NCBI GenBank assembly: GCA_964354545.1
Contig: CAYHAE010000008.1
Coordinates: forward strand, 1 to 48,464
DNA length: 48,464 bases
Origin: an uncultured Planctomycetia bacterium
GTDB taxonomy: Bacteria; Omnitrophota; Gorgyraeia; 2-01-FULL-45-10; JAHFGN01
Direction of reading: 5' to 3'
Numbering within the stretch: position 1 is the stretch's first letter; each line of letters opens with the position of its first letter. The position numbers and the translations under genes are program-made. Of the stretch, positions 1 to 46,714 are shown piece after piece. The notes under the pieces were generated by a model that was not told where the DNA came from, ran no database searches, and saw only the letters and a program-made list of their open reading frames with translations.

Positions 1-3000
1 TGGGACTTCACGGGGTCGAGCCCTAAGATGACGTCGAGGTTGAGCTCTCCCTCGTTCAGCCTTCTCTGCAAGAGCTTCTCATAGAGTCCTTTCACCATTG
101 GATAGAAGTCGTCTCGTGCGGGGTTGTCCCCGTAGGGGACGCCCTGCACGTTGCGTTCCCGCGGGGGGCTGTCGATGAGGAGCGTCATCACGATCGCGAG
201 GTCGAGTATGCCCGCCCACGGATAGACGTCCTCCTCGCCTTCCTGCCTCTGCCTATCGTCGATGGCGAGGACGCGGTAGTCGCCGTAGTCGCGGCCGTCC
301 GCGACAGTGGTGATGAGGAAGCCGGGCCTCGGCTCCTCGAGGCCTTCCTCCCGCAGAGAGTTCCTCGAGAGCGTGGAGCGCGTCCTGTACATCTCCTCGA
401 GGCGCTGCCGTAAACCCTCCCTCTTCCCTGAGAGGCTCACGAACTCGAAGCGTATGGGGTTGGCGCTGAAGCGCGCGTTCAAGCGCCTCTCCTTGAGGGC
501 GACGATGTCGGCGAACGTTTCGAGAAGGCCCTCGTCGCCTTCCCGCGTGAGCGGCAGCATGTCGACGTTGACGGCGACGGTGCGCGGGATGACCTTATCG
601 GTCGGCGAGCGCGACCGCGCGACTGCCTTTATGATATCGCGTGAGCCTTCGAGGCTCGAGAGGGTCATGTATTCGAGGGTAGAGAGGGCCTCTGCCGTGG
701 CGCGGGGCGAGGGCGTGGCGGGCGTGCGCACGAACCTCAAGAAGCGGATCGTGCCGCGGACGACCTCACCGGTCTCCTCGCGCGCTATGGCGACGCCTTC
801 CTCCGTGGCTGCCGGATAGGAGCCCGCCTTGTCGTAGAGGCTTCCGTCAATGGGCTTAAGGATGAAGCGCTCGCCGCCCACATCCCAGGCGACGGAGAAA
901 CGCTCTCCGTCTCCAGAGGTGAACGTCCCCGAGAAGTCGTCGGGGAACGCAGAGAAGTCATAGCTCACCCTGTCGGGAGCCGGCTGAGCCTCCTCGATGA
1001 GGCGCGCGCTATCAAGAAAGTCCGTCTCATCATATCTTCCACTCGTGGACTGGCGACCTTGCTGCTTTCCGGGTAAGTCGCCGTCCTCGATACTACTACC
1101 CGAGGAGGACTGGCGCCTGCCAGCTTCACCGTCCGTAGCCGTCCCCGAAGGGGACTGCCGCTCGCGAGTTTCACCTTCCGTAGGCGTCCCCGAAGGGGAG
1201 GTGCGTGTCTCAGGCGGTCCTTCTCGCGTCGAGCGAGATTGTCCCTCACCCGCTTTTTCCAAATCCGAATCCGGCCCTCGCGATCTCAGGTTTGCCAGGA
1301 AAGCTCCCAGAGCGCCAAAAACAGGCACGGAGAGGAGCAACAATGGGTGCGTGACCCCAAAGGCATAATGCAAAATAGCGATATAGAATACGAAGAAGCC
1401 GGCAAACGCACCCATCCCAAAGCCGGTAACGGTCCTTGGCAAGAACTCAGAGCCCTTCTCGGACCCTTTGAGATTCGCCAATAATACCCAGACGATAGAC
1501 CATGGCATCTCGACCACTGATATGCTCGAGACCATCTCCTGGGCTGTCGCGGTCCGGTTGAGATTGAAATACTGTATGGGTATCCATATGAGCCAGCACA
1601 GGACTATCGTTGTAAGAAGATTCCATTTGCGCTCTCTCCAGATCTCTCCCGCGATCATCCGCGGTGTCTTCATTGACGCGAGTTTCTCCTTCAGGGATAA
1701 TCCTTTCAGCTTATCGTAGAACCCGGAAACGAAGAAGGTCCAGAGGATGCTGGATGTCGCGCCCGCGGTCTGGTCTGTGAAGACCCTGAAGGCCTTGCCT
1801 ATCAGATGCGTGTTAGGTATGAAGTTCAGGTAGGCGACGTAATACCAGTTCCACACTATCCCAAAAATAAACCCGTAGACGAGAGCCGCTATCGCGATCT
1901 TTTTATAGTCGAGCTTCTCCTGGTCCCCTTTTAAGATGCCGAAGACTTGAGACAACAGTTCCCCTATGCCAAAATAGATCGTCGTGTTCACGTAATAGGG
2001 TATCGCACTCAAGATCACCGGGAAGCAGAAGTTCGCAAGCACCGCGAATAAGGCGGTGAGGCCGATGGACACGCCGATGACCGCATTCACATGCCCTTTC
2101 ATTACATTCAAGATCCTGCCGGACAAAGACGGGATCTGCGGCCTGTCGACCTCCCCGGCGACGTCTAGCGAAGGTTCGTCGCGCCGCTCTTCTCCGCTCG
2201 TTGAGCCGCGCGGCTCAGGTGGCCCTTCCCGCGTCGCGCGAGACCGCTCCTCGTCTTCACGTTCGCTTTCATCGTGACGGGGTGCGGCTGTTTTAGCAGT
2301 TCCATTTTTATAAATGAACAATACGAGCGGGATCAACCATGAGAGCAATGCATAGGGGTGGAGGTTTGTCGGCTGGCCCCGCAGTTCAGACGTGAGCACA
2401 TCGTACACGGAGAGGCCTAAGGGTATTATCGCTGAAAATAAGACGTGCCAGGTCTTGATGTTAACCAAGGGGCCCTGCCCTTGCGCGGGGCCTTCATCTG
2501 AACCGCTCGTTGAGCTCCTCCGGCCTTGTTCAAGACGGTCGCGCAAGATGGCCGGCGTCCTATTCTCGGTATCGGTGCGCCGTTCCCTCCTGCGCAAGGA
2601 GAGGGTATTGTAGCCCCATCCCTCCCGTTTCGAAAGGAAATCCGAGGGCTTCGTTATCGTCATCCCCTGCATCCCTCCGAGCGCTTCGAGCTCCGGAGTG
2701 GTGACAGGGACAAAGTCGCTCGAGAGGAAATCGTGCGAAAAGAGATGGTGCCCGGTATTCCACGGGGAGGACGAATCCTCTCCGAGCGTATATCCTCCCT
2801 CATTGAGATAACGCTGCTGGAGCTCCGCTACGGTCCACGCGGTCAGCTCTTCTGCATCTCTCTCTTTATCCATGTCATAATGAGGCGCCTTCTCCATGGC
2901 GATCGACACGCCCTGTTCGAGCAATTTTCGCAGGAGGGCGGGGCAGTGTTCTTCCGATGTGGTCCTGCGCACATCGAATGAACCGAAGAAGTATATGGTC

Positions 3001-6000
3001 CTCTCCTTCGGCGCCTCGCCCGGGTAGGCCCACGTGAAGCGTATCCTCCATATATCCTGCTCCTTGTCGATCGGCATTATCATATACTCGCCTCTTGCGA
3101 GGTCGAGGTACTCTTCGAGGATGAATTCCATCCACAGCCTGCTCGGCGCCAGATGGCTGAACGGCGTCCCCATCAGGTTCGTAAAGATCCTGTCCGTCTC
3201 TTGATCCCTCACCATCGCCGGCCTTACCTTCGCCTCGAACTCGTACCTCTTCTTGTTGCTCACGGGCCCGAATCTGGACTTTTCAATGAATATCGCCTCC
3301 GTGAAATCGGTGGCGAGGAGCGCGTGGTGGACGTCGGTGAACGAGTTGGGGTAGAAGAGCCTGGAGTTCGACCCGTCAGGGTTCACCACCGCGCGTATCT
3401 GTCTTAAGAACTCGAGTTTCCTTTCAGAGAAGAGACGCCTGAGCCCGTGAGGCCATTGCGGGGCCCCCCTCGTCGCTTCGCTCCTCGGGACTCCGCTCCT
3501 TGCGGTCGCGTCGCCGCTCGTCGAGTGACGGCCCGTCAAGGGTGGCCACGACTGATATTCCTTCCCCAAAACTAAATTGAACTCGCTCAATCTGTCTTTG
3601 GCCGTGACAAGAACTCTTCCATTATATGCGCGGTCAAATTGCCCGTACGTTATGTCGACGACGATCTCGTCGTCGACCAGGGCCAAATAGTGGTCCCGAG
3701 AAACGATCTGGTTCGATACGTCGGAATATCCGCGATAGCGCCCCTCAAATAAAGCCACAGACCTCCCTTTGAACAATCCGTTAAATGCCGCGCAGAAGCT
3801 ATTGTTCGCGTGAGCGCACATCGTACCTGAGGGGTCTTCCGAATCTCCGTCGGGCTCTCCTGCAGAAAAAGACCTTTTCAATTCCGCGAGCGCCGAGAAT
3901 ATCGCGCCATTGTCCTGATTCAACACCTCGTCCACACGAGAGAGAGTGATCTCGCCGGGTGCGAGGCTGCGAAGCTTATCTGCTATCACCTGCGTCAAGG
4001 CATCCCGGTGACTCTGCACCACATATCTTTCTCCTGTGCTCGTCCCGCTTGTGGAACCCCTGCTTCCGGCATCGCTGAACCCGATCGCGCCCTTCATCCA
4101 CTCTATCATGGGACTTTCCGCTTGATAGAAGGGACGCGGATGGGGAGAGTCTTCAGTCCCATCCACATACCACTGGAGGTTCATTATATCTACGAAACCC
4201 GCTGACTCCGGACCGACCGTCACGCCGAAGTAATCCTCGAGGAGCGCTATCTTTTGCTGATCACTGCATGACGTCATGATCTTATACAGATCATGCAGAC
4301 GGTATCCCAGAACCTGGTTCTGGTTGAGACCCCTCGTCCTTAACGCATTATCGAGGTCGTGGAAGAAGATCCTGTTATCGCAGTAGGAGATATTCGCAAA
4401 ATGAGGGAACATATGGATAAAACCGCTGTCGTGGAACCTGCGCAGCTCGCGGCCGACTTCTCTCACGACAGCAGGTTCGACGTATGTCGTAAAGTCGAAC
4501 ACGCCTTTTACTAGCCTCTTATCGAATTTGTCCTCTAACCCGAGGATCACAAAACCTACTTTCTGACCGTCAAATTCCATCCCTGTATACTCGCCGTACC
4601 CTATAGGGTACGGGACATTGAGGCCTGCCGCGATGCATTCAGATGCTATCTCAAACTCGTTCTGCGCCCTCTTAAGCAGCATCGTCCCTGTCGGCCTCTC
4701 CTCGGCTGTTGTGAATAATCCGAGCCCTTCGTCCGTCATCTCAAATATATCCGTGGGCCTGCCTTCACCCTGGTAATCTATCATCTGCGGCTCTCTGTCT
4801 ATCCCGCCGTAATGGTCTATCACTCCTTTGAGCCGTAAGGCGACTTCTAAGAAGTATATTTCTTTGCCTCCCACTCGGATCGGGTAAGGCAGGTCGATTA
4901 TAATAGACCGCCTTCCGGACGTGCGGTCATAGCGCATATTCTTCCAGCTCGCTGCCTCTCCTATCTTCCTAATGATCGATTCCGGCAGCACGTCGACAAC
5001 GTCCTTGGCGATATGTAATTTCACCGGATGCGGACCTTCGATGTCAAATTCCTGGAGGGGCCTTGCGCTGCCGCTCGCCGAACCGAGCGCATCCGGTCCT
5101 GAGTCCGCGCCCGAGGTGCTCGACCGGCCGCTCCCCTTCGTGCCCTTCCCCTCCCGGTCAATGGTGCTTCTGCCCGCCGCGTCCCGCGCCCGAGCCTCAG
5201 CATCCGGGGCCTGCCCTTTTCCTTTATCCTTTATCCCTAATATATCGAACCAGAATCTCTCTATCTCATCTTTGTACCGCTCGGCGACCTTGTCGAGGGA
5301 GTACTGGAAAAAGAGAATGAAGAAGAATGTCACAAAGGCGCTTAGGAAGGCCTGCCAGAGAGGCGCCTTTTCCCCGCCGAGCACGGCCGCTATCGTCAAC
5401 GCGGAACCGATAAGCGGGACGGCTATCACTTTAAGGAAGCCAAGCGCCTTGCGGAGAAATGTCCGACCGCCGCGCTCGCCCACCGCCTCTTCCAATCCGC
5501 GGCTGAGCCTCGAGGCGATATCGTCCGCCTGGTCTTCGAACGTGGTCGTGCTGGCCGAGGCGGGGTCCTGGGGATCGACGGAGGCAGTGATGTCAATGGC
5601 GAGGAATTGGACCCCATGCCGTGAGAGGTATCGCACATCGTTGACGATGCGCCGCGTGGTCTTTGCTATCTCCTCTTCGGTCGCCCGATGGCTGTTCCGC
5701 GGATCGACCCTGTCCTCAAACGACACGTAGTCGCCGTCGACGGTCGCGAGGGCCGGGCCCTTGAGCGTGCCGGCGAGACTCTTCGCATCTACCACTATGC
5801 CCTTTATGATCGTGCGGAACCCGTACCTCACCGCAAGCATGACGCGGTCGCTCATGGGAAGCACTACCAGCCCATCCCTTACTTCGACAGTCCCCGTCTC
5901 CCGCGCCGCATACCACTCCGGCACGATCCAGTAGACGCCGCTTATGAGGCCCTCTTCCGCAGCCCTTCTGACCCAATTATCGCCATTCACGTCTCTTCCC

Positions 6001-9000
6001 AGGGACGAACTGTCCGGATGCCTGTCGTAGAGGATGAGGGGCAGGCCTCTCGGTATTCTACCGGCCTCGACCTCCTCCTTGAGCCACCAGTAGAATTCGT
6101 CGTGGAGTACGCTCGTGTGAAGCCGGCCCGATGTGCTCGCTCTGCCCTGAGGACTTTCGCTATCACTGCGCGCAGACCCTTCTTCTGCGCCATCGGATCC
6201 ACCCTCCTCTTGAACCTGTGCCCTCATGCGGTTCGACCGCCATCCGAGGAAGATCTTCAACAAACCGTAGCCGGCGAGCACGGTGCCGGCGGCAGTAGCA
6301 ATACTCCAGCCCGCAGGCCCTGCAAGACCTTCCGCGGGGAAACGCTTCGCCGGCCTTGCAGGAGGCACGCGGACAAAAGTCCTTCGGGTGACTATGACAT
6401 TTGGTTCGGTCTTTTCCGCTGTCACATCGGGTTTCTTGTGACGGGCGATCATGAGACCGTTCGCGACAGGCCGGCCTCTGTGGAGGACCAATCTCTCCTG
6501 CCTCACGCCATGATGGATGCGGGCCACGACGGACCGTGAACTGCCTCCGTCGAGCGCGATTGCCTCGACCGCTCCCATACTTTTAAGGATATGTGCGGCC
6601 TCATGGAAGGACACGGCACCTCGCGCCGCGTGCAGCCACACGAGCAGGGCCTTCCCTTCTTTTGTAGTGCCAAGCACCATCCGGTCTGCGCTCGTCAATC
6701 CCGCCAATCTCTCCTCGACGGCGTTCACATAGACCTTTCCATCCATTATCAATCGAGGGCCTGCCATGAGGCCGTGGACGACGCCCTTCTCCTCCCAGCC
6801 CGGAGGAAGCGACCAGTGCCTCTCTATTTTGCTCCCTTTGGTGAAGGAAGAGGCGTATCTCCGCGCGCTTCCGTGGAACGAGATGACAAACCCGTCTTCG
6901 GGTATCTCGGAATTCCCTTTGCCCTGACGGACCTCGTCAACCTCATGCCGCATCGATACCGAACCGTCCCGGCGAGTACGGGAATGCTCCCTCACTATTA
7001 TCTCAATCCCGTAGTCGCTCGTCTCAGTATGTTTCCCATAAGCGGGGGTATAGACGACAAAGCCGTTCCGGCCGCGGGGCACGTTCACGCCGTGCACGAT
7101 GAAGTCGTCCCCGGCTTTCTTTGACGTGGTGAGCCAGTATTTCGGCATTTCGTCCGGTGAAGAGATGACCACCTTCGCAGGTTTTCCGGAAGACGGCTTT
7201 GTAAAACCTGCCATGCTTCGATGAATATTTGGCAGATTGAATACCAATACCTCCCCATCTTTCAGCACAAAGCCGATGGTCACTCCCGTGCGCAGGTCGA
7301 AGAAACCGCCGTTGACAGCGCCTTCCACGGTGAGGCCTGTCTCCTTCTGGAAGGAGGCTACCATAGCCTCAAGAGGCGCCGCTTCGAGCCCCGTCTGCCC
7401 ATTGGGATGCGTCGAAGGGACGATCTCGAGAGTCGTATCCCGGAGGTCCGCTGTAATGCGGTGCGTTTCGATGTATCCGTAGTGGCCGACACCGTAGTCA
7501 ACAGAATCTAAAGGATAGCCCGCGTGCACCTGAGGGGCAGCCCTCGCTGCGTCCTGACCGCACAGGCTCGCAGCGCCGACGAGGCCGCCTAGGGCGATGA
7601 GAAAGCCGCGTCGGGTCATCGGTGCCGCATACTCTTCCATACGGTCCGCGATCTTTTCAAGAATGTCTTCGACTCCGCTCGTCGAAAGCCTGACCTGCGG
7701 GAAGATATCGTTCCTTTCAGACAGAGCGACTATCCTTGGCCGCACGATCCCCACGCTCCTGTCCATTTCGCCGATACTGAAAGGCAGGGCTCGAGAAAAT
7801 CTGTTCCCCCGCTGCCATACTGTTGCAGCCACATTCCAGCTCAAGGTCTCCTCTGCGATCTTCGCGAAACCGGAATACATATGGAGCATGAAGAGCGGCA
7901 TGCGATCAAGGAAGTAGGGCACGAGGGAGCGCTCGTTCGCGTCCACCGTGAAGAGGAACGCGCCCTCCCTCATCTCCGTGAGGTTGCGCGCCATCTGCAT
8001 GATCGCGGCGTCCGACATGAGCGACAGCACATTGTTCATGAAGACTACATCCGCGGACCGGAGGCATGCGACGGTCAGAGGATCGAGCAGGCTTGCGCAG
8101 GCAAAGCCGAACGTCATGCGCGCGCGTATCTCGGGAAGCATCCGGTTGACAAATGCGAGCCCCTCGCGTGTCTCGGGCGGTTCTGTCCCTTCGACCGGGA
8201 AACTGGTGACCACATTCCGGTATGCCGCGTCGATGGTGCGGCTGTCAATGTCGACTCCCATCATGAAGAACCTGAGCCGGTCTATCCACCCTCTCCACCC
8301 GGGGATCCCCTTTGCCGCGTCCAACATCACTGCCCCGGCAGAGGCGAGATTGCACCCATAAGAAGACCCCAGGTCCAGGACCTTTATCGCGATGTCCCCT
8401 CCCCCGAAGCTCCGCAGGACTTTAAGGAGGTTCCGCCGGAACAGCTCCTCAAGGTAGCCGAGCTGGACGGGGTACCTCATCACCCACGAGCCGGTCTTGT
8501 TTCCCGCGATCCTCAGAAGATCGTGGAACGCGGGCGACTGGAGATCGACGAGATCCTGTGCGTACCAATGGGTGTCGCCGCCGTACACATTCCACAGGGT
8601 CTCCGAACTCGCTATCTGGGCCACCGCGTGGCCAACAGGATTACCCACGGTATCGACGAAGCCGGAGCCTATCCGCTGGAGCGCGGCAGATACCGCGGCG
8701 TAGAGGTCCTTCTCTAGAATAGCAATCGCATTGGCCTGGCCATGCACGAATGGAATGGACCCGCCGAAAACGCCTCGTCCGCTGGTCGATATCGCACCAT
8801 GGGGTACCTCATCGAGGACCCTCTCGACCTGAGCGCTCAGATGACCGCTTGTCGAGAGCCGTGTGTGCTTTTCGTCATGTTCGGGCCGGACCTCAGTGAA
8901 CGCTCTTAAGTATCCAAGCGCCGCATCGCGAACCCCAGAGTTTGGATGTTGTGCTGCCCGTTCCAAAAACCTCCTGCCGCTCTCCCTATTCTCTCTCGCT

Positions 9001-18000: not shown

Positions 18001-21000
18001 CCTTCCAGCACTCCCTCTTCGTCCTGCGCCAGCAGGCTTATATATTCATCCAGGTAGGGAGTTTCTTGCGGATCGCGGTGTGGTGCAATTTTTTTCAACG
18101 CCTCCTGGATAGCCTTATCATGCACTCGATTTTTCTCGGTGAGCACCTTCAAATACTCATCCGCAAACCAGGCCATCATCCTTTCATCGGTTCCCTTATC
18201 CGGCGCCGGTACGTCTATGAACGGTCCTATCGCGCGCTTTTTCGCAAGCTCGCGGGAAAACTCCCTTATGATGCGCGCCATGTCATTATCGGTGTAGCGT
18301 CGCTTCGGGACGAATATATCGCCCTTGCCGCCTCCGTAAGGGACCCCGATAACGGCGTTCTTTATGCTCATCAACGTCGCAAGTCCGGCCGCCGTCTCTT
18401 CCGCTTCTTCGGGAGTATCCCCCTCTCCGACCAACCATCGCAGACCGCCCTTCCCTGCGCCGCGCGCGTCGTTCTGCAGCACTCTGAACCCCCACAATGA
18501 AACCGTATCTCCGTCATCCAGAGCAACCTTGAAGTGCACTCTTGTCACACGCTTCGCGCTCAAAGCCTTTCTTCTTACAGCCCAGTGAAGCTTCATCGTG
18601 TCGGCGGCCCGAGCGATATTGTCCTCAGCCGCTTCTAATATAGTAAGAGGATGAACGGCCGACTCCTTCCGTGAATACAAAAGCGTCGATGTGGTATGGG
18701 GCGAGCCGACGATCGAGGCATAGCCTGTTTTGCGCTCTACCTCATCCGGGGTCACGATCTTATTGGAGGTATCGATCAATGATAAAATGTGCAAGCCCGT
18801 CTCCGACATCATGGAATTAAATTTGGCCGTAAAATACGTATCTGCATATGCAAAGTAGTCGGCGACTTTTGAACGTTTTCCCTTTGAGGTTACTTCTACA
18901 AGAAGGTCTATATCGGACAGAGGGCCGATCTCTTCGGGTAAACCGCGGTCGATGCTTCCGAACAACCAGATCTTTAATATCCCGCCTGTACGGGAGCCTG
19001 CGTGATCTGCCACAAACTGTGAAAGGACATCCCGGAAAACGCTGTGCGCTGACGGATCGGCTGTCGTGAGCAATCTTATAAAGGCGTCCTGATTTTCGCA
19101 GCCTAACTGTGAAGACGCTTTGGCAAGGCTTTCTTCCCATATCGTATCGAACTCTGCGTGTAGCGATTTCTTTAACGAAGCGGCGAGGCCGAAATAGCGG
19201 GAAAAGGAGAATTTTTTCAGGCGGCCTTCATCTCGTTCTGCCCCCGAGGTTGACTGGCGACCCTGCTGCTTTCCGGGTAAGTCGCCGTCCTCCACAGTAC
19301 TACCTGAGGAGGGCTGCCGCTCGCGAGCTTCTCCATCTGTAGGCGTCCCCGGAGGGGACTGGCGCTCGCTCGCATCACCATGAGTAGCCGTCCCCGGAGG
19401 GGAGGAGCGGGTCTCCTCCGAACGCTGTTTCAATAAAGAAGAGAGGAGGGCCTTGATCTCAGCGGGTCGTACCGCTACGTTACCATCTAACTCAGGTTCA
19501 TACCCCACCTCCGCGATATGGAGCCCGAGGATCCTGCTACCCGCAAGCCTTCCGGAAAGCACCTCCCGGATCGCCTTGAACGTCTTGACATCGGTATCAA
19601 TGGAAAGGAATACGTTCTCATAACTCTTCCCTGCCCCCAATTCAAAGGCGATGCCTCTTGCCTCCAAATCCTGCCGGACCTCATCAATGTGCCCGGTCCC
19701 CACCATTCCGGTCAGTGTATCTTCCCAAAGGTCCCAGTTCCCTACGCCGAGTATCGTGAGCCGGCCGGGAGGAACCACCTTATGCTCAATACCATAAAGC
19801 CAGAAGCCGCCGTTCGTGAATTTCGTTTCGTAACAGTCGGTATGCTGGTCCGGAGAGATGATATCCGCTTCGACACCATATATGCGGTTCAGCGCATCGT
19901 AGAAAGGCAGAGAGAGCATATGGGCCCCGCCCATCACGACAGGTATGGCCCCACTCTCTTTAGCTTTTCGGATATGGTCCATGAAGAAATCTACCAGCTC
20001 TTCATAGACCCGTTCTTCGTCGGGGTGCATCCAGTTCGCGTTTATCTGGGCGACGTCTTTTCGCAGCGGGCCTACGGGATGCTCGGTCGTTCGGACCTCG
20101 CCCTGCTCAAATAACGGGAACGACAGAGAAGAGGGCATCAGTCCCATCTCGATCACATAGAATGCCTGCCCTTGCCCCGCAGCCGGTACCCCGCTCGTCG
20201 AGCCTCGCTGCTTCTCCTCAGGGCGAGATCCCGAGTCGGAGCGAGGGATCGACTGCCGCTCGCGCGCTTCACCGTCCTTAGGCGTCCCCGAAGGGGACTG
20301 GCGTTCTGCACCAGGTGTTGGTTCTGGAGGTACAATCGTCTTTGTGAGGACACCGTGTCCCCCTATATCGACCGTCAACAGAGATACGCCGTCCGCTTTC
20401 AGGGTGACATGCCGCGGTTCGGGGGAGAGATTGGTGACAAGGACAGTATCTGTCCCTGCATGCCTCACGAGAACCGCGCCTATATGATCATTGTCGGTGG
20501 TGAGCGCGTGGAATTCGGCGCCGGCCCGGACCCACGCAGTGATCGACTCAAGGAGCCCGTCATGGAATTCCCGGAATTCGAGGTTCCCATCCCGTCCCGC
20601 GTCGAATTCACCCGGTCCGGGCTCGCCAAACATGAACGGGACAGGGCTCAAGACGCCGAACCTGTCCGGACTATATTCCATGACACTCGTCCGCATGAGG
20701 TGCGTGAGGTGGAGGATCAAGAATGCCGCATACAAAGCTTTCAGTTTCGCGATCTTACCTTTGTCGTCGGCAACGTCGCGGACTAAGGCGGCGAGGCTTC
20801 CATTATATTGGGACTGATCGTGGTTGTTGAAATACATGAGAAGTCGCTTGTTGCCTCCGAGGCTCCAGAGCCTGCCCTCCAGGGCGTTAGTGAGCCACCT
20901 GTAGGAAATAGATGCATGGGCAGCCATGAGGTCGCGGATCCCTCCGAAGTAGATCTCATCGAAAGGATATTGCCGGGCAGGGTCTTCCCACTCAGCGACG

Positions 21001-24000
21001 AGCGTCTTTATACCGTTACCTCTCAGGAGCATGGGCAGCACGGGACTTATCTCGCCCCCGAGGTCCAGCCGGACAACAGGAAATCCGACGGTCCTTACCC
21101 ACCAGATGAGCTGAAGGTCAGCCTCCGGGTTCCTGTCGTCTATCGCGTCATCCCATGTCTTTATTATCTCTTCATGCCCCCGCCACCATACCCGGCTGTA
21201 GTCCCCTTCGCTCAGAGGGTGGCGACCGTCAAAGAACGAACCTGTGTGGCTGAAGACCGCGTCGTACGCCATGTCGACTCCATATGCCTCAGCAACTTCC
21301 TTCAGCCGTCTGAAATCGTGCGACGTACCGGCCCACGATGCGAACGCGATGGGTGAATAGGTACAGAGCATGTAAGGACGGCTTAGACACAACGTACCCG
21401 GATTCAACAAAATACGGTCATAAGATCGTGCGAGGCGGGGGATCTCTTCCGTGAGCCACTGGACGGCCGTCCTGCCCGTTGCCTTCAATTCTTCCCACGG
21501 CGCTTCGAGGAGGAGGTTCATCTGGAGCGTGCGCTTCCCGCGGTCGGGCACTGTGCGCGCGCGTTCGTGGAACTCCTGTTTCGGATAGACCCTTGCGAGC
21601 GAATTCCATGCTCCGTCAATGTCACCCGACATGGGGTCGTTGAACCATATATCATAGGTAACCACTTCACCCTGCGCGGTGCGCACGGGAATACGGATGT
21701 TGAACTTGTACCCGAAATGGCCCTCAGGAAGCGCAACACACCACGTCCACTTCTTGAGCGCCGCATCGTATGCCACGGGGCGGCGGAGCTGCTGCCATCC
21801 TTCTTGAAGAGCAGCGACACCTTCTGGAGGCTGGTCCACGCCAATCCTGATGTCACCCCTCGACCAAGGCCGTCCTGTGAGGAAGTTCCCTCGCAGCGCG
21901 AGGCATTCTTCATGGGTGCGCACGTAATCGATAACTGCCTGGAGCACTGCCTCGCCGAGCCCCTCCGGATTTCCTTCCGGCGCTCTGACGTTGAGAATCT
22001 CGGCGAGCTGAGAGATCCTGTCTGCCCTGCGGGTAAGCTGTTCGCGAAGGGCCCGCTCCACACCCTCTTCCGTCAATGTGAACCGGACACCGCTGTCGGT
22101 AGCCTGAACGTTGCCCGCAACAGCATAGAGGTCCTGGTAGCGCACCTCGCCCTTGAATTGTTCCCACCGTCTGCGCCACTTCTCTTCCTGGGCGCTTATG
22201 AACACTTCGACTCTTTCGTCCCTGACGCCGCCGGCCTGATAGACGTGTGCGAGAAGGCTTACGAGGTGCCAGGGTGCCCATACAGTATCAAAATCAAGAT
22301 CGTGATCCCATTGCCCGATATAAAGGACGAGCGCATGAAGTTCGAGGTATCGATACGGTTCGTCCGCAAGCCGCCTCTCGAGGTCCTCCGCGGCCTTTCG
22401 CAGGTCATCATAGGTGATATCCGTCCCTCGCCCTGCGGCAAGCGAGTCGACGAATCCCTTGCAGAGAGTTTTGAATTCTTCGGGATCATCAGGGCGGGGC
22501 AGTGCGGGCAACGCACGCATGAGCGCCTCATTCGCCTTCCCCTCTCTCACAAGATCCCTCAAGGCCTTTAAGAATGCCTCATCGTCACGCTCTCCTGCTG
22601 AGCCGGTGGTCGAGGCGCGCGGCGAAGAGCCTGTCTCCTTGTCCGCGGCGAGGACCCGCGCGCAGATATCCCGTATCTCATCGTCACCTGTTGTCGCGAC
22701 GGTGAGTGCAAGCCGCTCCCGAACTTCATCTGAGATCGTAAGAGTATCCACTCGTATCGACCTTATTACGATATTCTTTAAGATCGACCTCTGGAGTTCG
22801 GCATCCCTCCTGATGAGCCTCATCCCGACGCCGGTGAGCCTGTCTGTGCCGAGGATCCCGAAGATCACGTCGGGCAGGCTCTCGAACGGCTGGCCGCTGG
22901 TCCCGCTCGTCGAAGAGCGCGGCTGCGCCTCATCTGTCTCTCCCCGGCTCCCCTCCCCGATGATCTCGAACTTGACGTGCTGTCGCGAGAGGTCCACCTC
23001 TATCACCCTTGCCCTGTAGAGACGCCTCTCATAACCGGGCCCGGATATGTTATCGTACAGGTCATCGCATCGTATCACCCGGGCGATCCTGGAGGCGGGG
23101 ACGAAACCGGACGTGGTGCGGCCGCCGTGCGTCTTCGCGGTCACGACGATGCCGCTCTGCTTTCCGGTCTGGCTATTGAACCGGACGTCGTGGGCAACGA
23201 CCGTCATTTCAGCGCCTAATCTAAAGGATGCCCTGAAGTCTTCCGCATCGATCGGCCCTCTCTCGCCAGAGCTACGAGGCGGCGCGCGTCTTTCGCCTTC
23301 GCCCAACAGGACCCCGAGCCTCTTGACCATCTGCTTTTTCGAAGGGTCAGCCGACACTTTCTCGAGAAGCCCTTGCATCTTGGATCTCGCTTCCTGTCCA
23401 TAGGGGCCTGCGAGCAGGTGTCGTGCCGCAGGCACGACGTGCCCTTCAACAAAGGGACCCCTTGGATCATTGAGGGCAAAGGCAATGTCGTATGCGGCAC
23501 TGCGCGCGGCAAAGCTGCTCTTATCCGAAAGTGCCCCGACCGTCCTCTTCGCGAACTCGCGGATATCCTCTCTCTCGTTCGTGAGCAGGCCCACGCATCG
23601 GCTGACATCGGTCTGCTCGAGCCACAGGCGTGCGCCGGAAGCCGCCTCCCGCGCGACGACCCCATCGGCTTTCGCCAGCACCTCTTCCAGCGTCGGCTCG
23701 ACCGAATCCCTGACATACGCGGCATTGCGATCCCTGAGGGCATACGAGAGGTTGGCAACCGCGGCGATCATCGCCACGACGCCGCGCCCGGCGCGCTCGA
23801 CGATGGTCCTCCCCGCAAACGCCTTCACTCCGGGGATCTCAACCTTCAAGAGCCCGATACACTGTCTTATGACCTCCTCGTCAGGAACATCAACGAGAAG
23901 TCCGACGGCTCTTTCCTGTTCCTCTCTCAGTGCCGCGATCTCCATATCCGTGAGCGCCCGGCACTCTCCGGGTCCGAGCCCTTCAAGCGCTATCGGCCCC

Positions 24001-26858
24001 ACCCGTACCCTTGTGAGCGCGGTCACCGAATGACCGATCGCTCTCATCAACTCTTTGACCTCGTGATACTTTCCTTCCCGTATCGTGAGGAGGATGACCG
24101 TTCTCGGATAACCGGATGAGCCTGTCTCCCGTATCGAGTCGTCGTGAAGGATCTCCGCAGCCGCAGGCTGGCTTTCGTACGCGCGATCTCCCGCCCTGCG
24201 GTCATGGAGCCGGATGCCTCCACGCCGCAGTCTCTCAATGCCTGCTTCGTCTACATCACCCTGCACGACCACGCGATACGTCTTTTTCGTATGCGTCGCA
24301 GGCATGATGAAATGCGCGAGCATCTCCGCATCGTCCGTCATTATGACGAGGCCGCCGACATCGTAGTCGAGCCTGCCGATCGGATACATGTCCTCTATGT
24401 CAACTCCGTGGGCCTCAAGCACCCCATATATGCTGCGGCCCATCCTCCCTTCCTCGTCTTCGGTGGAGACGACACCCAACGGTTTATTCATGAGGATATA
24501 TCGATGGGCTTCTACGCCTGACGTGCTCTGGCGCTCGCCAGCTTCTCCGTCCTTAGCCGTCCCCGGAGGCTGGCGCTCTTGCTTGTCATCAGGCAAAGCG
24601 CCGTCCTCCATCTCACTTCCTGAGGAGGAGGACTGCCGGTCGCCGGCTTCACCGTCCGTAGGCGTCCCTGGAGGCTGGCGCTCTTGCTTGTCGTCAGGCA
24701 AAGCGCCGTCCTCCATCTCACTTCCCGAGGAGGAGGGCTGCCGCTCGCCGGCTTCACCGTCCGTAGGCGTCCCCGGAGGGGATTGCCTTTCTTGAGCTTC
24801 ATCTTCCGTAGACGGCGCATGAAGTCCCTGTGAAAAGGAAATAAAATCTTCGCGAAAGATCTGGTTTAGATCTATGCTTTCAAACTCTGCGCGAGCCTCT
24901 CTCAGCGTCTTCCTGACGTCTCTGTCAAGCCACGGTTCTTCCAAGATCATACCGATGTAAGCTTCGGAGGCAAGCAAGTTTCTCATGTCGTGCCACAGGT
25001 CCCTGATTATGATGGACTGGATCTCGTGCAGGTCCTTGATGGCTGAGTGCGGTGAGAGCCTTACGGTAAACGCGGAACCCTTCCCCACCTCGCTCTCGAC
25101 GCTCATCTCGCCGCCCCAGTGCTCTATCAATTGCGTCACCAGATAGAGGCCTGTGCCGCTGCGCAGGACATGCTCTCCCTCAGGGGCGATGCTCCCCATA
25201 AATTTGTGTGTGCCGAGCTGCGGGATGTCCTCAGGAGTGATCCCGACACCCGTATCTCTCACCTCTATCACGACATGAGGGTCAACCCTGTACGCCCGGA
25301 CGTAGATCCGCCCCCCCTGTTTGTTATATTTCACCGCATTCGTAATGAGGTTCTTTACCATGGAGCAGAAGACCCGCCTGTCTCCCGTCACGGTGAGGGC
25401 GGTATCGCACGTGACCTCTGCTATTAAGCCGCGTTCATTCATCGATCGCTTGTTCTCGTCGATGATATGAGCGATAATCGCGGCGACATCGAGCTCCTCC
25501 ATCGTCGAGCTCCCGTAGGGCAGGTCCTCAAGGTCTCCCCTGTACTCCTCGAGCTTATCCTGCAATTTATGAGCGCAATCGATGACTACCCCGAGCCATT
25601 CGAGGACCCAGTTGGCTACTTGCTCTGGCACGACTATCTTCTTTGTTTCCAACCCGCGGCATATCGTGCTCGCTCTTTCTGCGATGTCCTCGAAGACGCC
25701 CCTGACCCCTCGAATGGTCACCTCGACGACGCGGATGCCCTGTCCGCGCCGTATGAATATCTGCTCTATCTCCTGCCTCCTGTCAACGTTACCTCCGCGC
25801 AGCGTTCTACCCTCGATCCTCTCCAAGATCGCCTCCAGGCCCGCGAGGATGTCGTCGAACCCTTCGGCCCCTGAACCAAGCATGGCATCAAGACCACGCG
25901 CGGAGGTCGCATAGTACTCCGCTGTCTCTCCGTCTTTCTCGAGTCTATGTAAAAAGGCTTCGGCGGCGCGTCGATGCACCACGTCTGTCGCTGGGAAGGG
26001 TTTTTCAGATGGTGAGCCCGTCGAATCCGCTCCGCTTGTCGAGCCTCGTATTTCCCCTGCTGGGCGAGATCCCGAGCGATAGCGAGGGGTCGACTGCCAC
26101 ATGGATGCTGTTTCACTATCTTGAAGCGCCCTCAAATGGTTCTCAACGATCCGTGAGTCGGCAAAGAAGATGCGGGGCATGATCACACATGAGGCATCAG
26201 GATGGTCTTCGGCCCAGAAGCGCAGTTCAAGGGGGAATATCGCGCTGTGCGCGATGACGGGCGCGGGGACCCTTGCGCCGATGGTATCCCTGTATCCCTT
26301 TAGCTGGCGCGAGGTATCAGGGATGAGAAGTGCGGGGAGGCCGAGCGATTGGGCGAGCTCAAAGGCGCCCTTATCGATGGGGTACCACGCACACTCGTCC
26401 GCAAGTTGGGCGCGCAGGACCCCGTTATCTCGCTTCGGAGAGGCTTTCGGGATAGGACGGCCCTTCGTCTCCTCGTCTTTATACACCCCTATCACTCCAT
26501 CGTGAGAGATGTGCGCCTGGTAGGACCTGCCCTGTATGGCGCAGGGGACGAGGTACGAGTCTCCCTTAGCGGGCTGCTTCCTGTCGAAGTATACTGCGAT
26601 ACCCTCTTTCTGCTCGTTGAAAGTGCCTTGGAGGCGTGCGATGTCGATGCGCGAGGAGCGGATGAGCCAATCGAGGTACCACTCGAGCCTTCCCATCTCC
26701 CTCCTCTCGGGATCGGGGGCATTGACTATGCCGGGCGCCCTTACGTTGCTATCGGGGTATGCCCAGGAGATGTCGTAGGCGATAAAAGTGGCTATGAGGA
26801 CGAGGGATATTGTCCTAATTATGAGGCGAATTTTTTTATTATCATTAGCATATATCAT
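1..26858 (-). CDS. Giant multi-module protein (>=8,952 aa, 3' end beyond the left edge), putative polyprotein with RxSTSG linkers
   Basis: Manual translation of the minus frame (codons at + positions 3k..3k+2) from ATG 26858 ([36 protein letters not shown]...) to position 3 (...[12 protein letters not shown]) shows no stop. None of the minus-strand ORFs listed in 1-26858 lies in this frame, as expected for an edge-open ORF. Many intact enzyme motifs fall in this frame. Confidence 0.96.
   Translation of the reverse strand, partial: [8952 protein letters not shown]
1038..1250 (-). repeat. Linker repeat cluster (RTSPSG, RQSPSG, RQSSSG, RQSTSG)
   Basis: The 63-bp segment 1050-1112 matches 9957-10019 with 1 mismatch and 19254-19316 with about 6; contains TCCCCGAAGGGGA hairpins. 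Confidence 0.9.
1285..2090 (-). other. Giant protein domain: Mpv17/PMP22-like polytopic membrane domain
   Basis: GIGELLSQ...KLDYKKI...[13 protein letters not shown]...FTDQ...[13 protein letters not shown]...[10 protein letters not shown], with extra TM helices on both sides. Confidence 0.68.
2590..3400 (-). other. Giant protein domain: divergent Rossmann/methyltransferase-like domain
   Basis: [26 protein letters not shown] and YLNEGGYTL resemble class I MTase motif I and the LxxGG motif. Confidence 0.4.
3600..3840 (-). other. Giant protein domain: transglutaminase/papain-like Cys-His-Asp domain
   Basis: GTMCAHAN (Cys 3816-3818), DHYLALVD (His 3690-3692), VVDITYGQF (Asp 3654-3656). Confidence 0.72.
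4230..4900 (-). other. Giant protein domain: protein-kinase-like fold (RIO/Kdo/WaaP-like) with atypical catalytic loop
   Basis: [15 protein letters not shown]...[37 protein letters not shown]. Confidence 0.7.
5290..6120 (-). other. Giant protein domain: UPF0489-like (arginase/deacetylase-fold) domain plus two TM helices
   Basis: [42 protein letters not shown]; hydrophobic segments at about 5300-5440. Confidence 0.65.
6240..7619 (-). other. Giant protein module: internal Tat-like signal + phosphodiester glycosidase (NAGPA family) + C-terminal TM helix
   Basis: [99 protein letters not shown]. Confidence 0.88.
7800..8420 (-). other. Giant protein domain: CheR-like SAM methyltransferase
   Basis: [53 protein letters not shown]. 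Confidence 0.72.
8885..9760 (-). other. Giant protein domains: ComEA-type helix-hairpin-helix DNA-binding domain followed by HEAT-like repeats
   Basis: VNCA...LLRIVGF...AEIVRTR...[19 protein letters not shown]; then [18 protein letters not shown] and [14 protein letters not shown]. Confidence 0.75.
9855..10115 (-). repeat. Linker repeat cluster with tandem GTCCCCGAAGGGGAC palindromes
   Basis: Copies at 9898-9912 and 9914-9928; shares segments with 1050-1112 and 16078-16127. Confidence 0.9.
10150..10700 (-). other. Giant protein domain: divergent CheR-like/class I methyltransferase fold
   Basis: [44 protein letters not shown]. Confidence 0.5.
10915..12100 (-). other. Giant protein domain: FkbO/Hyg5 (Rid/YjgF superfamily) chorismatase-like
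   Basis: [64 protein letters not shown]. Confidence 0.9.
13920..14460 (-). other. Giant protein domain: class I SAM methyltransferase, PrmA-like
   Basis: [37 protein letters not shown], FNIG. Confidence 0.75.
14780..15260 (-). other. Giant protein domain: low-molecular-weight protein tyrosine phosphatase / ArsC family
   Basis: CX5R(S) loop [10 protein letters not shown] at 15210-15239, [17 protein letters not shown], KVFLL...DTPD. Confidence 0.85.
15987..16140 (-). repeat. Linker repeat cluster
   Basis: About 15998-16049 is nearly identical to about 20252-20303 ([19 protein letters not shown]). Confidence 0.88.
16185..17040 (-). other. Giant protein domain: uridine/nucleoside-kinase-like P-loop domain (degenerate)
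   Basis: [57 protein letters not shown]. Confidence 0.8.
17165..18640 (-). other. Giant protein domain: complete Glu/Leu/Phe/Val dehydrogenase (glutamate dehydrogenase-like)
   Basis: [110 protein letters not shown]. Confidence 0.95.
18690..19000 (-). other. Giant protein domain: minimal nucleotidyltransferase (MNT / pol-beta superfamily)
   Basis: [10 protein letters not shown]...SDIDLLVEV (hG[S]x..DhD signature). Confidence 0.8.
19242..19410 (-). repeat. Linker repeat cluster
   Basis: RSSPPGT / ERQSPPGT / RQPSSG / [16 protein letters not shown]. Confidence 0.88.
19440..20160 (-). other. Giant protein domain: arginase/agmatinase (ureohydrolase) family
   Basis: [16 protein letters not shown] (DxHxD), VFLSIDTDV (SxDxD), ILGLHIAEV. 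Confidence 0.82.
20190..20305 (-). repeat. Linker repeat cluster
   Basis: ERQSPSGT...[19 protein letters not shown]; the second part also resembles about 26031-26098. Confidence 0.85.
20340..21900 (-). other. Giant protein domain: CBM48/AMPK-type carbohydrate-binding module plus GH13 alpha-amylase-family domain
   Basis: CBM: [16 protein letters not shown]...IWFNDP...DGAWNS. GH13 conserved regions: [18 protein letters not shown] (I), VVRLD (II), LVAEW (III), YFNNHD (IV). Confidence 0.85.
22960..23220 (-). other. Giant protein domain: S1/OB-fold-like RNA-binding domain
   Basis: GIVVTAK...[10 protein letters not shown]...[17 protein letters not shown] resembles the S1 pattern. Confidence 0.45.
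23925..24505 (-). other. Giant protein domain: RsuA/RluB-family pseudouridine synthase catalytic domain
   Basis: [13 protein letters not shown], catalytic [49 protein letters not shown]. Confidence 0.92.
24516..24800 (-). repeat. 105-bp (35-aa) tandem linker repeat, about 2.5 copies
   Basis: AGGCAAAGCGCCGTCCTCCATCTCACTTCC at 24591 and 24696; unit [14 protein letters not shown](D/E)RQ(S/P)[17 protein letters not shown]. Confidence 0.92.
25040..25460 (-). other. Giant protein domain: histidine-kinase ATPase (HATPase_c)
   Basis: N-box [11 protein letters not shown], G1 VRDTGVGI, G2 SGTGLYL, and [24 protein letters not shown]. Confidence 0.9.
26760..26858 (-). other. Signal-peptide-like N-terminus of the giant protein
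   Basis: Basic n-region KKIRLIIR, hydrophobic [13 protein letters not shown], then DISWA|YP (S-W-A before a possible cleavage point). Confidence 0.65.
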
Positions 26859-38181: not shown

Positions 38182-39777
38182 TCACTCCAGCTGGCAGCTG
38201 ATGCTGAACGACGACGCCGCCCCTTCCTTTGACGGCCGTTCTTGTATCGACGTCAATTGCGCATCTTTTAGACAGGGGGATTTCTCCATATCCTCCATGA
38301 ATTTTGTCAAGGACGACTCCGCCGGCCCGCTCTTTTCGTACACAACCCCTGCGATCTCCATCGTCTTGGATTCGGCATCGAGCCGCACCGTGTGCAGGAC
38401 CGTGGCGGGCTGGATGATCGCGGAGAGGACCCTCATGATGTATTCGATATCGAGTTCGTCTTCCTGTGTGACCTCGAGCAATTGCTCCCTCTCCTTTATC
38501 TTTTCGCTGAGGGCCCTCACCTTTGCGAGCACCCCCTTGTGCATCGCCGCATTCTTCACGCGCCGTCCGTAATCGTCAACCTTCAATTTAACCGCCACGT
38601 ACGAGAAGACGAGGAGGACTCCCACGATGATCGATACGAGCCTCACGGATATCTTCTGCGCCAACTCCACCTTCTCCAGCCTGTACTCCACCGGCAGCAG
38701 GTTGACCTTCTTGCTCGTATTGAGCGCAACCCCTACGGCGCCCATGATCGAAAGAGACTCTTCTTCGGAAATCGCGAGACCTGAGGCGCCCATCCCTTTC
38801 GGGATCCCCATCTTCTTCACGGGCAGGCCCAATTGCTCGCTGAGGTATTTCTCGATATTCTTCAAGCGGGAACCGCCTCCCGCAAGATAGACGGCTGACA
38901 CGCCTTCCCCGCTGATCTCAGAGACATAGTATTCTATGGACCTCTTTACCTCCTTTGCGAACCGTTCCAATGTGCCCCGCATGAGCGTGAGGACCTGGAT
39001 CGAAGTGATATCCTTCTCAAGGCGCATCGGCTCGTACGGGATGCCCAACTGCTTTTTTACCTCCTCGGCATCGTCCCACGAGAGTTCCTTCCGCTCCGTC
39101 CCGCTTGAGAACGGGGCGCACAGGGACGCGGTGATATCTCGCGAGGCGATCGGGATCGTCCTCACAAACTGCAGCGTCCTGTTTCTATAAAAAGATATAT
39201 CCGTCATCGAATGGCCCATCTCAATGACGACGATGGACGAGGACAGATCCGCCTCGCTCGCCCGCACTACGTTCTCAAGGGCGAAGGGCGGGGCGTTCAC
39301 CGAGAGGATGCGCACATTCATCTTCTTGAAGGGCCCTATCTTCTTTTCTATCTCCTCCTTCACGGCCGCGATAAACAAGACCTCGACCGTCTTCCTGGTG
39401 CCTTCTTTCTGGGTATCCTGGATCTGCTTAAAATCGACGGTCGCCTTATCGATGTCGAACGGAATCCTCTCCTTTACCTGCCACCTGAGCGCATCCGATA
39501 TCTCCTGCAGCGGCATAGAGGGAAGGCTGATGCGCCTTATGTTAAGGAACTCCCCTGAAATCACCATGTAGACACTGGAGCGCGCCGCGTTGTGGTCCTT
39601 TAAGGTACGCACAATGGCGTCAGCGAGGATACCCGTATCCGGCTCCTTCGGAATAATGAGGACGGAGAAGAACTCCAGGCGCGGCATCGCACCCGACTTC
39701 AGGCCCACTATCTTAACGGCATACGACCCTACATCGATACCGACAACGTTCGAAGTTCCCCTTTTAAAAAAAAGCAT
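38182..39777 (-). CDS. pilM: Type IV pilus assembly protein PilM fused to a PilN-like domain
   Basis: VGIDVGSYAVKIV, actin-like YLAGGGSRL, then KVNLLP + TM + coiled coil (PilN-like). Confidence 0.88.
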   Translation of the reverse strand: MLFFKRGTSNVVGIDVGSYAVKIVGLKSGAMPRLEFFSVLIIPKEPDTGILADAIVRTLKDHNAARSSVYMVISGEFLNIRRISLPSMPLQEISDALRWQVKERIPFDIDKATVDFKQIQDTQKEGTRKTVEVLFIAAVKEEIEKKIGPFKKMNVRILSVNAPPFALENVVRASEADLSSSIVVIEMGHSMTDISFYRNRTLQFVRTIPIASRDITASLCAPFSSGTERKELSWDDAEEVKKQLGIPYEPMRLEKDITSIQVLTLMRGTLERFAKEVKRSIEYYVSEISGEGVSAVYLAGGGSRLKNIEKYLSEQLGLPVKKMGIPKGMGASGLAISEEESLSIMGAVGVALNTSKKVNLLPVEYRLEKVELAQKISVRLVSIIVGVLLVFSYVAVKLKVDDYGRRVKNAAMHKGVLAKVRALSEKIKEREQLLEVTQEDELDIEYIMRVLSAIIQPATVLHTVRLDAESKTMEIAGVVYEKSGPAESSLTKFMEDMEKSPCLKDAQLTSIQERPSKEGAASSFSISCQLE

Positions 39778-39810
39778 GCGTCCCTTTTATCTCCTATGCT
39801 TATTAAGGCA

Positions 39811-39838
39811 ATTATATCATGGCGATGTCAAAATACAA
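39811..39838 (-). promoter_or_regulatory. Possible sigma70 promoter for pilM
   Basis: TTGTAT, 16-nt spacer, TGn-TATAAT. Confidence 0.45.
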
Positions 39839-39876
39839 TGGATGAGTAATGAGAAAGTCCCTCGCGAGCGATGTCC

Positions 39877-40605: not shown

Positions 40606-40624
40606 TTTTAACAGTGCCTCAACC

Positions 40625-41820: not shown

Positions 41821-41857
41821 TATAGGGCATCCTTTCCGACTATTGTAACGTGAACCG

Positions 41858-45359: not shown

Positions 45360-45392
45360 CATTCACCTCCTTTTTGAGTTATCGTAAGTTCA

Positions 45393-46696: not shown

Positions 46697-46714
46697 GGCT
46701 CATCCCCTCGCCCG

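Follow-up and report, generated by a model that had tools for sequence, protein, structure and literature searches.

Translated spacers and a conserved junction hexapeptide at the module boundaries of a giant multi-enzyme gene from Omnitrophota

Results

Modules and spacers of the giant gene

The window analysed here, bases 1–48,464 of contig C8 from an Omnitrophota genome (G000; 2.23 Mb in 102 contigs), holds a giant open reading frame (ORF) on the minus strand, and our subject is the repeated DNA between the modules of this gene. The ORF starts with an ATG at 26858 and runs stop-free to base 3; it encodes at least 8,952 amino acids (aa), with the C-terminus lost at the contig edge. It comprises about 21 unrelated, enzyme-like modules (M1–M21), nine of which match a total of 13 Pfam families: HATPase_c, PseudoU_synth_2, Arginase, NTP_transf_2 together with ELFV_dehydrog (Glu/Leu/Phe/Val dehydrogenase), LMWPc, a PrmA-like methyltransferase, FkbO_N together with Ribonuc_L-PSP (RidA), HHH_3 together with HEAT_2, and NAGPA (in M14). 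No Pfam match spans a junction or spacer. The gene belongs to the known multi-enzyme giant genes of Omnitrophota.

A sequence-only reading of this DNA had described near-identical linker cassettes dispersed through the gene and likened them to an integron-style array. On recomputation, every repeat pair that it named is real and far above chance. Positions 1050–1112 and 9957–10019 match at 62 of 63 nucleotides (nt), and the diverged third copy at 19254–19316 matches them at 57 and 56 of 63, respectively; a search with the 63-mer at up to three mismatches finds two sites, against 0.00 expected from 100 shuffles. Matches of 51/52 (15998–16049 with 20252–20303), 26/30 (1209–1238 with 2214–2243) and 95/105 (the 105-nt tandem, 24528–24632 with 24633–24737) were likewise recovered. 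The pair 9898–9947 and 16078–16127 reaches about 42/47 only with a 3-nt register shift. The likeness reported for 26070–26098 is the core of an ungapped match between 20222–20258 and 26063–26099 (31/37), and the repeat search gives 78% identity between 20191–20257 and 26032–26098. The claim that all copies share orientation and frame is correct for those listed, which lie on the minus coding strand in the frame of ORF 3–26858, and fails for a copy at 120–175, which is 84% identical to 9908–9963 and spaced from it by 9788 nt (2 modulo 3), so that it is read in a different frame. Similarly, the repeats do populate the proposed range of 1050–24800 but are not confined to it, since the system reaches 26031–26098 and 120–175.

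When translated, the repeats are low-complexity spacers between blocks with unrelated Pfam domains. The spacers La to Lg occupy seven junctions (Table 1); elsewhere there is little between modules beyond a six-residue motif. The spacers are assembled from three kinds of unit: unit A, 15 aa (45 nt), reads ..GTPTxGExxERQS-P/S-SG; unit B, 21 aa (63 nt), reads ..SSGSxxEDGDLxxKQQGRQ; and unit C reads ..GTTGAGRPLRGQ. The unit ends are variants of the junction motif (RQSPSG, RQSSSG or RQSTSG). All but one of the 59 nhmmer hits to unit A (58) are in the frame of their host ORF. Unit B is present 17 times in six giant ORFs, and its signatures differ from gene to gene (DLPGK in C8, DLHAK in C41), which means homogenisation within genes. 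The high identity of the copies, which had been taken to imply recent exchange, is confirmed as such, but gene conversion or slippage within the gene fits it equally well, given these signatures.

The junction hexapeptide

The motif is R-x-S-T-S-G. It occurs 19 times in the giant ORF, closing module boundaries, and one further STSG lacks the Arg. Throughout the genome there are 95 copies in stop-free frames of at least 100 aa, 91 of them in frames of at least 1,200 aa, spread over about 20 giant ORFs (for example, 11 in C56 and nine each in C33 and C41). The first Ser codon (n = 95) is TCG in 52 copies, TCA in 14, TCC in 13, AGC in 10 and TCT in 6; the third is AGC in 74, TCN in 18 and AGT in 3. 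Switches between the Ser codon families that retain the residue are therefore present at 28 of 190 Ser positions (10 first-Ser AGC and 18 third-Ser TCN). Because codons vary, even across Ser codon families, while the residues stay, this pattern argues that the hexapeptide is kept by selection on amino acids.

The codons also carry a record of ancestry. Third-Ser AGC (78% vs 28% in the background) and Thr ACG (73% vs 40%) are strongly preferred, and the DNA word TCGACGAGCGG occurs five times in the window, against 0.12 expected. Three related genomes use the word TCG-NCG-AGC-GG, with AGC for the third Ser at 40/40 junctions and TCN for the first Ser at 40/40. Codon use this far from background, together with a word common to relatives, argues that the junctions descend by copying from one ancestral DNA word (TCG-NCG-AGC-GG). 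The middle residue is near-uniform inside each genome and differs among genomes: it is T in G000 and S in G001 (where R-x-SSSG is found nine, eight and four times in three ORFs); G002 has a mixture, and both G003 and protein P0002 have P.

Within what was searched, the motif is confined to a small clade that comprises families f1 and f2 of a single order, because the DNA pattern CGNNNNTCGNCGAGCGG is near background almost everywhere outside G000. In a scan of 201 genomes of the class that left out G001 and G003, it was found 34 times in G000 (control, 0) and five times in G002 (control, 0), and most other genomes gave 0–1, the level of the control. Higher counts in G135, G112 and G138 were dismissed as chance matches in GC-rich DNA that carry no in-frame motifs. 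Giant ORFs of family f3 that have the same N-terminal anchor lack the motif. Among metagenome contigs, a search with the M9 protein found no relatives, and a degenerate DNA pattern for unit B returned 14 stretches, all of them chance matches without motif-bearing ORFs.

Table 1. Junctions, spacers and flanking features located in the window, in order of position.
Feature	Coordinates	Strand	Remarks
Unit C with palindrome, inside M21	112..175	-	Out of usual frame (..VPYGD..)
Long spacer Lg	1038..1250	-	Two A units and one B; ends RQSTSG; similarity to C88 starts here
Junction RGSTSG	2193..2210	-	REGPPEP before motif, resembling 1209-1238
Junction RSSTSG	2502..2519	-	Lc-like spacer here in strain X3
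Junction RHSTSG	3513..3530	-	Adjoining 48-nt indel in strains X1 and X3
Junction RGSTSG	4044..4061	-	Motif scan
Junction RSSTSG	5109..5126	-	Motif scan
Junction RASTSG	6126..6143	-	Lf-like spacer here in strain X3
Junction RLSTSG	7674..7691	-	Tat-like RRGFL within 20 residues (M14, NAGPA)
ISTSG, STSG without Arg	8778..8792	-	22 residues past preceding junction
Junction RLSTSG	8844..8861	-	Motif scan
Long spacer Lf	9855..10127	-	A, B, C and A units; ends RQSTSG
Junction RGSTSG	10869..10886	-	Motif scan
Minimal junction RGSTSG	12126..12143	-	Long spacer here in strains X4 and X3
Junction RESTSG	13839..13856	-	Motif scan
Short spacer Le	14736..14777	-	Partial unit A; ends RQSTSG
Long spacer Ld	15987..16154	-	Unit C and two A units; ends in variant RQSSSG
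Long spacer Lc	19242..19424	-	Two A units and one B; ends RQSTSG
Long spacer Lb	20190..20327	-	Unit A and GSRP...RGSTSG tail; resembles 26031-26098
Junction RSSTSG	22902..22919	-	Motif scan
Long spacer La	24516..24812	-	Holds 105-nt tandem 24528-24737; ends RQSTSG
Junction RGSTSG, end of M1	26031..26048	-	Motif scan
Type II secretion / type IV pilus-like locus	38182..48403	-	Upstream of giant gene; context only, outside repeats
PilM/N	38182-39777	-	Scan of flanking ORFs
Two pilin-like genes	44937-45362, 44316-44813	-	Scan of flanking ORFs
T2SSF	45485-46696	-	Pfam scan of flanking ORFs
T2SSE	46715-48403	-	Pfam scan of flanking ORFs

A palindromic repeat within and outside the spacers

Within the units lies a perfect 15-nt palindrome, GTCCCCNNNGGGGAC, which is present 41 times in the genome, compared with once for a non-palindromic control. 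It is translated as ..SPSGT.. in 23 copies, as ..RPLRG.. in eight and as ..VPxGD.. in nine, and one copy is intergenic; 40 of the 41 thus lie in stop-free frames of at least 100 aa, the smallest of which may not be true genes. The palindrome is also found in ORFs other than the giants, and in both orientations. The M21 insertion at 112–175 includes 45 nt that are missing from a 95%-identical copy of the module on contig C88, and a 17-nt imperfect direct repeat bounds the indel. Conversely, a copy of M1 on contig C18 has a patch of unit A, out of frame, that is missing from M1 of the window. The palindrome is absent from 13 loci (~180 kb) of relatives' giant genes, several of which have the junction motif; since relatives have the motif but not the palindrome, the motif is older than the palindromic units. 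Altogether, the units resemble a family of translated palindromic repeats in their behaviour.

Two hosts outside the giant genes deserve description. Positions 6058–8091 (plus strand) of contig C22 encode a 678-aa secreted protein whose N-terminus is signal-like and whose C-terminus is TPR-like; it contains five palindromes (..VPVGD.. / ..VPAGD..), and the sequences around them match unit A when read one way and unit C when read the other. Within the window, ORF 41858–44374 (minus strand) encodes a multi-pass membrane protein of 838 aa that matches no Pfam family and in which a translated 46–47-nt tandem with CCCCGAAGGGG (..PPSGRLRF..RGPLRGG..) at 42175–42267 is possibly an insertion of the palindromic family into a non-giant gene.

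Rearrangements at the spacers

Paralogous modules lose their similarity at the spacers. M21 (3–1037) and its copy on C88 share 95.3% nt identity (dS 0.108, dN 0.031); the similarity begins at the junction at 1038–1055, and the sequences upstream are unrelated. M1 and its C18 copy share ~300 nt at 100% identity in a mosaic pattern, and here similarity stops where the spacer starts. Overall, 23 of 59 high-scoring segment pairs between paralogues, which are not independent of one another, have their start no more than 30 aa from an STSG, compared with 14% for random positions.

Strain variants of the gene were drawn from four sediment metagenome runs, belonging to four studies, which supplied parts of it at 90–99% identity on short contigs. 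In 15/15 of the joints listed, both ends fall in, or within ~50 nt of, a spacer or junction, and at least three junctions have a spacer that differs from the one in the window. Record 26 of X4 has an Lb-like spacer inserted at junction 12126 between unique M9 and M10 flanks, and records 17 and 18 of X3 carry Lc-like and Lf-like spacers before the modules starting at 2502 and 6126. Other changes include the 48-nt indel next to junction 3513, seen in two runs (X1 and X3), a 198-nt deletion within Lf and, in one contig, the replacement of 2143–2516 (the small two-helix module M19) by 60 nt of spacer.

The same boundaries appear over larger distances. The GDH-kinase block (P0001, residues 2728–3610) is 72% identical to residues 248–1122 of P0002, where it is exactly bounded by junction motifs at 242–247 and 1116–1121, and 65% identical to residues 199–1038 of P0003, which has no motif. 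This block is the only part shared with the long homologues, and its neighbours differ in each. When a 1,725-aa stretch of the gene was compared with 30 genomes of the same order, only single modules matched, within other giant ORFs. Because the comparisons with paralogues, strains and relatives all show other neighbours or spacers, module order is not conserved, and the boundaries of the moving blocks coincide with junctions. Rather than an invariant order without breakpoints at the linkers, we thus find an order that varies and breakpoints at the spacers. What the sequence-only reading said of module shuffling holds to this extent: the linkers join modules in frame, and they are where structural change is located. 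The integron-style mechanism that it attached to shuffling does not hold, as discussed below.

Discussion

Two superposed layers

The repeats of this gene are constrained as peptide and have spread as DNA, and it is at them that the gene and its relatives differ in structure. These observations are best explained if the presumed cassettes are DNA that codes for the spacers between modules of a multi-enzyme giant gene of Omnitrophota, with two layers superposed, a reading that we hold with a probability of roughly 0.6. One layer would be the peptide junction motif R-x-S-T-S-G, closing almost every module and under amino-acid selection. The other would consist of spacer arrays of 15–21-residue (45–63 nt) units, derived from a palindrome-bearing repeat that is copied as DNA in any frame, also into other genes and the inside of modules, and that varies in copy number. 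Since the spacers are alike in sequence, strand and frame, module exchange could proceed in frame: gene conversion, slippage during replication and homologous recombination from one spacer to another would resize them, and the same processes would duplicate, delete or exchange whole modules. We infer that recombination from spacer to spacer caused the rearrangements; the mechanism is likely homology-driven and would involve no dedicated recombinase.

Several points weigh against this reading. The strong codon bias could mean that the uniformity of the motif partly reflects recent common descent and not selection. The strain contigs are at most 500 nt long, were built from k-mers at a depth of 2–7 and were placed at 90% likeness; repeats attract split alignments, chimeras are possible, and few strain records have unique flanks. 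None of these contigs is a recombinant between the near-identical copies that had been named as partners for deletion or swap. C88 and C18 may also be co-binned strain variants in the 102-contig metagenome-assembled genome instead of paralogues; the breakpoints would still be at spacers, but the story would change.

Other accounts explain some of the same facts. A site-specific recombinase that uses the spacers as sites and moves module cassettes inside the ORF, as in an integron, would be in keeping with repeats of shared orientation and frame, with the small palindrome in the junction word (TCG-N-CGA), with units that carry the 15-nt palindrome and with breakpoints at spacers. Yet the gene is a single uninterrupted ORF from 26858 to 3 with no separate cassettes, none of the 10 large flanking ORFs scanned encodes a recombinase, and the three Phage_integrase matches of the genome are on C12, C9 and C97, none on C8. 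The motif codons vary while the peptide is kept, with codon-family switches at 28/190 Ser, and neither circles nor reciprocal products were seen among the strain contigs. We therefore abandon the cassette-array interpretation, in which translated repeats under peptide-level constraint are hard to accommodate, and regard integron-like movement as very improbable. The perfect 6-bp hairpins that recur in the units could instead act in RNA, with spacers forming mRNA structures that pause ribosomes or guide the processing of RNA between modules. This is extremely improbable: Lg, taken as 216 nt, folds no better than its shuffles (z = -1.36; 22/200 as good), a second apparent hairpin is not retained across copies, Rfam has no match in the window, and the hairpin is missing at most junctions.

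The spacers might also be passive Pro/Thr/Ser/Gly-rich linkers duplicated by slippage, with a hexapeptide that is just the preserved tail of an ancestral linker and has no recognition role, and with spacers that play no causal part in module rearrangement; breakpoints would then accumulate at spacers only because change elsewhere is lethal. Low-complexity composition, tandem arrays that vary in copy number, a codon bias that fits common descent and the failure to find a processing enzyme among the protease families searched all agree with such linkers. They are nonetheless unlikely, as six residues are strict at 95 sites while the remaining spacer is free to vary, 13 junctions of this gene have the motif yet no long spacer, the middle residue is near-uniform per genome and different among genomes, and the use of the other Ser codon family in some instances points to selection on the residue. 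Selfish DNA is a further candidate, in the form of a translated palindromic mini-element that, like those of Rickettsia, invades domain boundaries as well as other tolerant sites without benefit. It would account for the excess of palindromes (41 vs 1 in the control), which occupy all three frames and face both ways, for hosts such as the 678-aa TPR protein on C22 and the 838-aa membrane protein of the window, for insertions missing from near-identical paralogues and for the absence of the palindrome from 13 loci (~180 kb) of relatives. We consider it quite improbable, however, since the hexapeptide is older and wider, being present in G001, G002 and G003 without palindromic units, since 58/59 copies of unit A are in the one frame that yields hexapeptide variants, and since no mobilising gene lies beside the copies. 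Mobilisation of the RAYT type was considered and rejected: the four Y1_Tnp genes are all on contigs without the palindrome.

A possible role for the hexapeptide

Because the motif is strict at 95 boundaries, uniform within genomes and different between them, its pattern suggests recognition by some partner. As a tentative best guess, the hexapeptide may be a recognition site at which the giant protein is processed after translation to yield products the size of modules; a conserved hinge or a modification site would be the alternative. A broader version, which we find doubtful, would make R-x-S-[T/S/P]-S-G a lineage-specific, genome-wide processing code and the giants the equivalents of operons, translated as bacterial polyproteins. 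Each junction would then be a point at which the giant is cut or marked in some other way, multi-unit spacers would come out as short peptides, modules with a signal of the twin-arginine translocation (Tat) type directly after the junction would be exported on their own, and the translated palindromic repeat would supply new junctions and drive module shuffling.

Tat-like signals occur deep in two giants, 5–25 residues after a junction, in M14 (7560–7673, RRGFL) and on C52 (RRGFF), each followed by a hydrophobic stretch; hydropathy-based helix counts are crude. TatC is present on C2. Such internal signals would make sense if modules were released. They are found at only 2/95 junctions, however, and may be relics of gene fusion. 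No candidate protease emerged among the families searched. Peptidase_S8, C14, CHAT and C11 were not found in the genome, in a search that did not extend to other protease families, and Peptidase_C80 was not found either, a weak result because the control genomes gave no match. C39 domains are present only in giants that lack or nearly lack the motif (C25, C1 and C3). M17 was tried and rejected as a motif-linked protease, since its nine homologues have no junction motifs. TraB_PrgY_gumN was not found in the genome with the model used.

M17 itself (3513–4043) has 177 aa and contains the motif (I/V)-x-V-D-x-T-Y-G-Q, common to nine long metagenome proteins. It has no name in Pfam, PDB or the atlas and no homologue of near length. 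In the alignment, a Cys is invariant (10/10) and a His is present in 9/10, and the module could be an uncharacterised Cys/His/Asp-type enzyme domain.

A second N-terminal family of ~600 aa (alignment A2: C43, C26, C33, C52 and C70) has invariant QDAH, EG.EG and TGGFH. Its predicted structure has a mean pLDDT of 64 (58 for M1), and Foldseek returned nothing at E <= 0.001. VIA-align placed EreC (Z 7.0, 152 aligned), HopBA1 (Z 6.3, 161) and ChaN (Z 6.2, 178) in a list where many unrelated entries reach the same Z. As a hint, the predicted model suggests that the family may be a hydrolase of the erythromycin esterase EreC/ChaN fold. The EreC/ChaN/HopBA1-type superfamily is linked to TIKI proteases.

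Relation to known systems

Giant multi-enzyme proteins of Omnitrophota have been described as 'Archaeovorins' (West-Roberts et al., 2023, bioRxiv 10.1101/2023.11.21.568195), and 'multi-enzyme metabolic clusters' have been described from the same phylum (Nielsen & Lui, 2026, bioRxiv 10.64898/2026.06.07.730766). In the parts of these texts considered here, the likeness to our gene extends from the phylum, to which the names of the homologues P0002 and P0003 (Omnitrophota/Omnitrophica) also point, to a very long ORF that combines domains of unrelated enzymes (HATPase_c, methyltransferase, HEAT and others), a membrane anchor at the N-terminus and, upstream, a locus of the type II secretion/pilus kind (10.1101/2023.11.21.568195). 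As far as the contig preserves it, our ORF (at least 8,952 aa) stays below their thresholds of 10,000 or 30,000 aa. The main-text parts covered, supplements excluded, describe no junction motif or spacer repeat. In the main text of West-Roberts et al. (10.1101/2023.11.21.568195; supplements excluded), cleavage points are said to be unknown and the words 'linker', 'polyprotein' and 'recombination' have no occurrence; sections 8 and 21 of Nielsen & Lui (10.64898/2026.06.07.730766) discuss tandem nucleotide repeats only generally. Outside supplements and the remaining preprint sections, the motif, its lineage variants, the palindromic units and the mapping of rearrangements were not found in print.

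That Omnitrophota have giant genes is known; how such genes are built, how they evolve and whether their products are cut are the questions on which this locus bears. With the six-residue motif and its lineage variants, module boundaries in the giants of this genome gain a concrete mark that can be searched for, and whether giant proteins are processed becomes directly testable. Common in-frame spacers, arising partly from a palindromic repeat that spreads as DNA, offer a plausible engine of modular evolution through duplication and exchange of modules. Were the motif indeed a processing code, the cleavage points called missing by West-Roberts et al. would be at hand.

The nearest analogue of the palindromic units would be the Rickettsia palindromic elements (RPEs), as described in the sections considered (PMC10969869). 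RPEs likewise reside in many palindromic copies inside ORFs, adding peptide and leaving the frame intact, and are present or absent between related sequences, as are the 45-nt indel between C8 and C88, the C18 patch and the strain spacers. The likeness is one of description. Our units measure 45–63 nt vs about 100–150 bp for RPEs; most of them form tandem arrays where modules of giant genes meet, and most are read in the one frame that gives a conserved hexapeptide.

MARTX toxins, too, are single, very large proteins made of a string of unrelated modules, and in the source sections considered their repertoire changes by gene exchange. They differ from our protein, which has no Peptidase_C80 match (weak evidence, as the controls were silent), no RTX repeats and a different junction motif. 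The effector modules of MARTX toxins are released by cleavage between modules. Polyproteins with a conserved cleavage motif at every junction are known from viruses. They resemble the giants in having a short, strict motif at nearly all boundaries that differs slightly between lineages, and differ from them in that the giants are cellular and membrane-anchored and that a protease was not found among the families searched. With integron arrays the gene shares repeated sites of the same orientation flanking exchangeable units; integrons consist of separate ORFs with attC sites and an adjacent IntI, unlike the one ORF with translated repeats and no adjacent recombinase seen here. Sites of the attC type have imperfect inverted repeats; the units hold a perfect 15-nt palindrome, and the absence of Rfam matches in the window is to be read with the caveat that Rfam may not hold attC.

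Neighbouring genes and other giant genes

The giant protein begins with a hydrophobic helix (26754–26858), followed by the conserved sequence D-[IL]-[ST]-W-A-[YQ]-[PG]. The same N-terminal motif is present at loci L019, L021, L022 and L031 and in proteins P0003, P0008, P0010, P0011 and P0013, and this helix and motif, common to the clade, look like a signal anchor or a signal-peptidase site.

Contig C3 (1–100743) is a single stop-free frame of 33,581 aa that is open at both ends. This largest of the ORFs has no junction motif and two Peptidase_C39 matches, and the giants on C25 and C1 also carry C39. With C39 domains in C3, C25 and C1 and no motif in C3, the genome therefore holds two kinds of giant gene. 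C8 (window 1–8) and the end of C88 (5415–5422) stop at identical sequence inside their 95%-identical modules, probably an assembly break at a shared repeat.

Genes on the same strand upstream of the giant ORF include, besides the secretion/pilus-like locus, MiaB-like, RodZ, FtsK, UppP and PNPase genes. A 300-nt direct repeat of 94% identity corresponds to the two pilin-like genes (44316–44813 and 44937–45362), which are of the type IV kind, stand in tandem and encode an identical hydrophobic N-terminus; they are located between the gene for the 838-aa membrane protein and T2SSF. The record CAZPYQ010000110.1 (locus L038 of G001, same family) is titled Planctomycetia while its kin are Omnitrophota, which is probably a difference in labelling.

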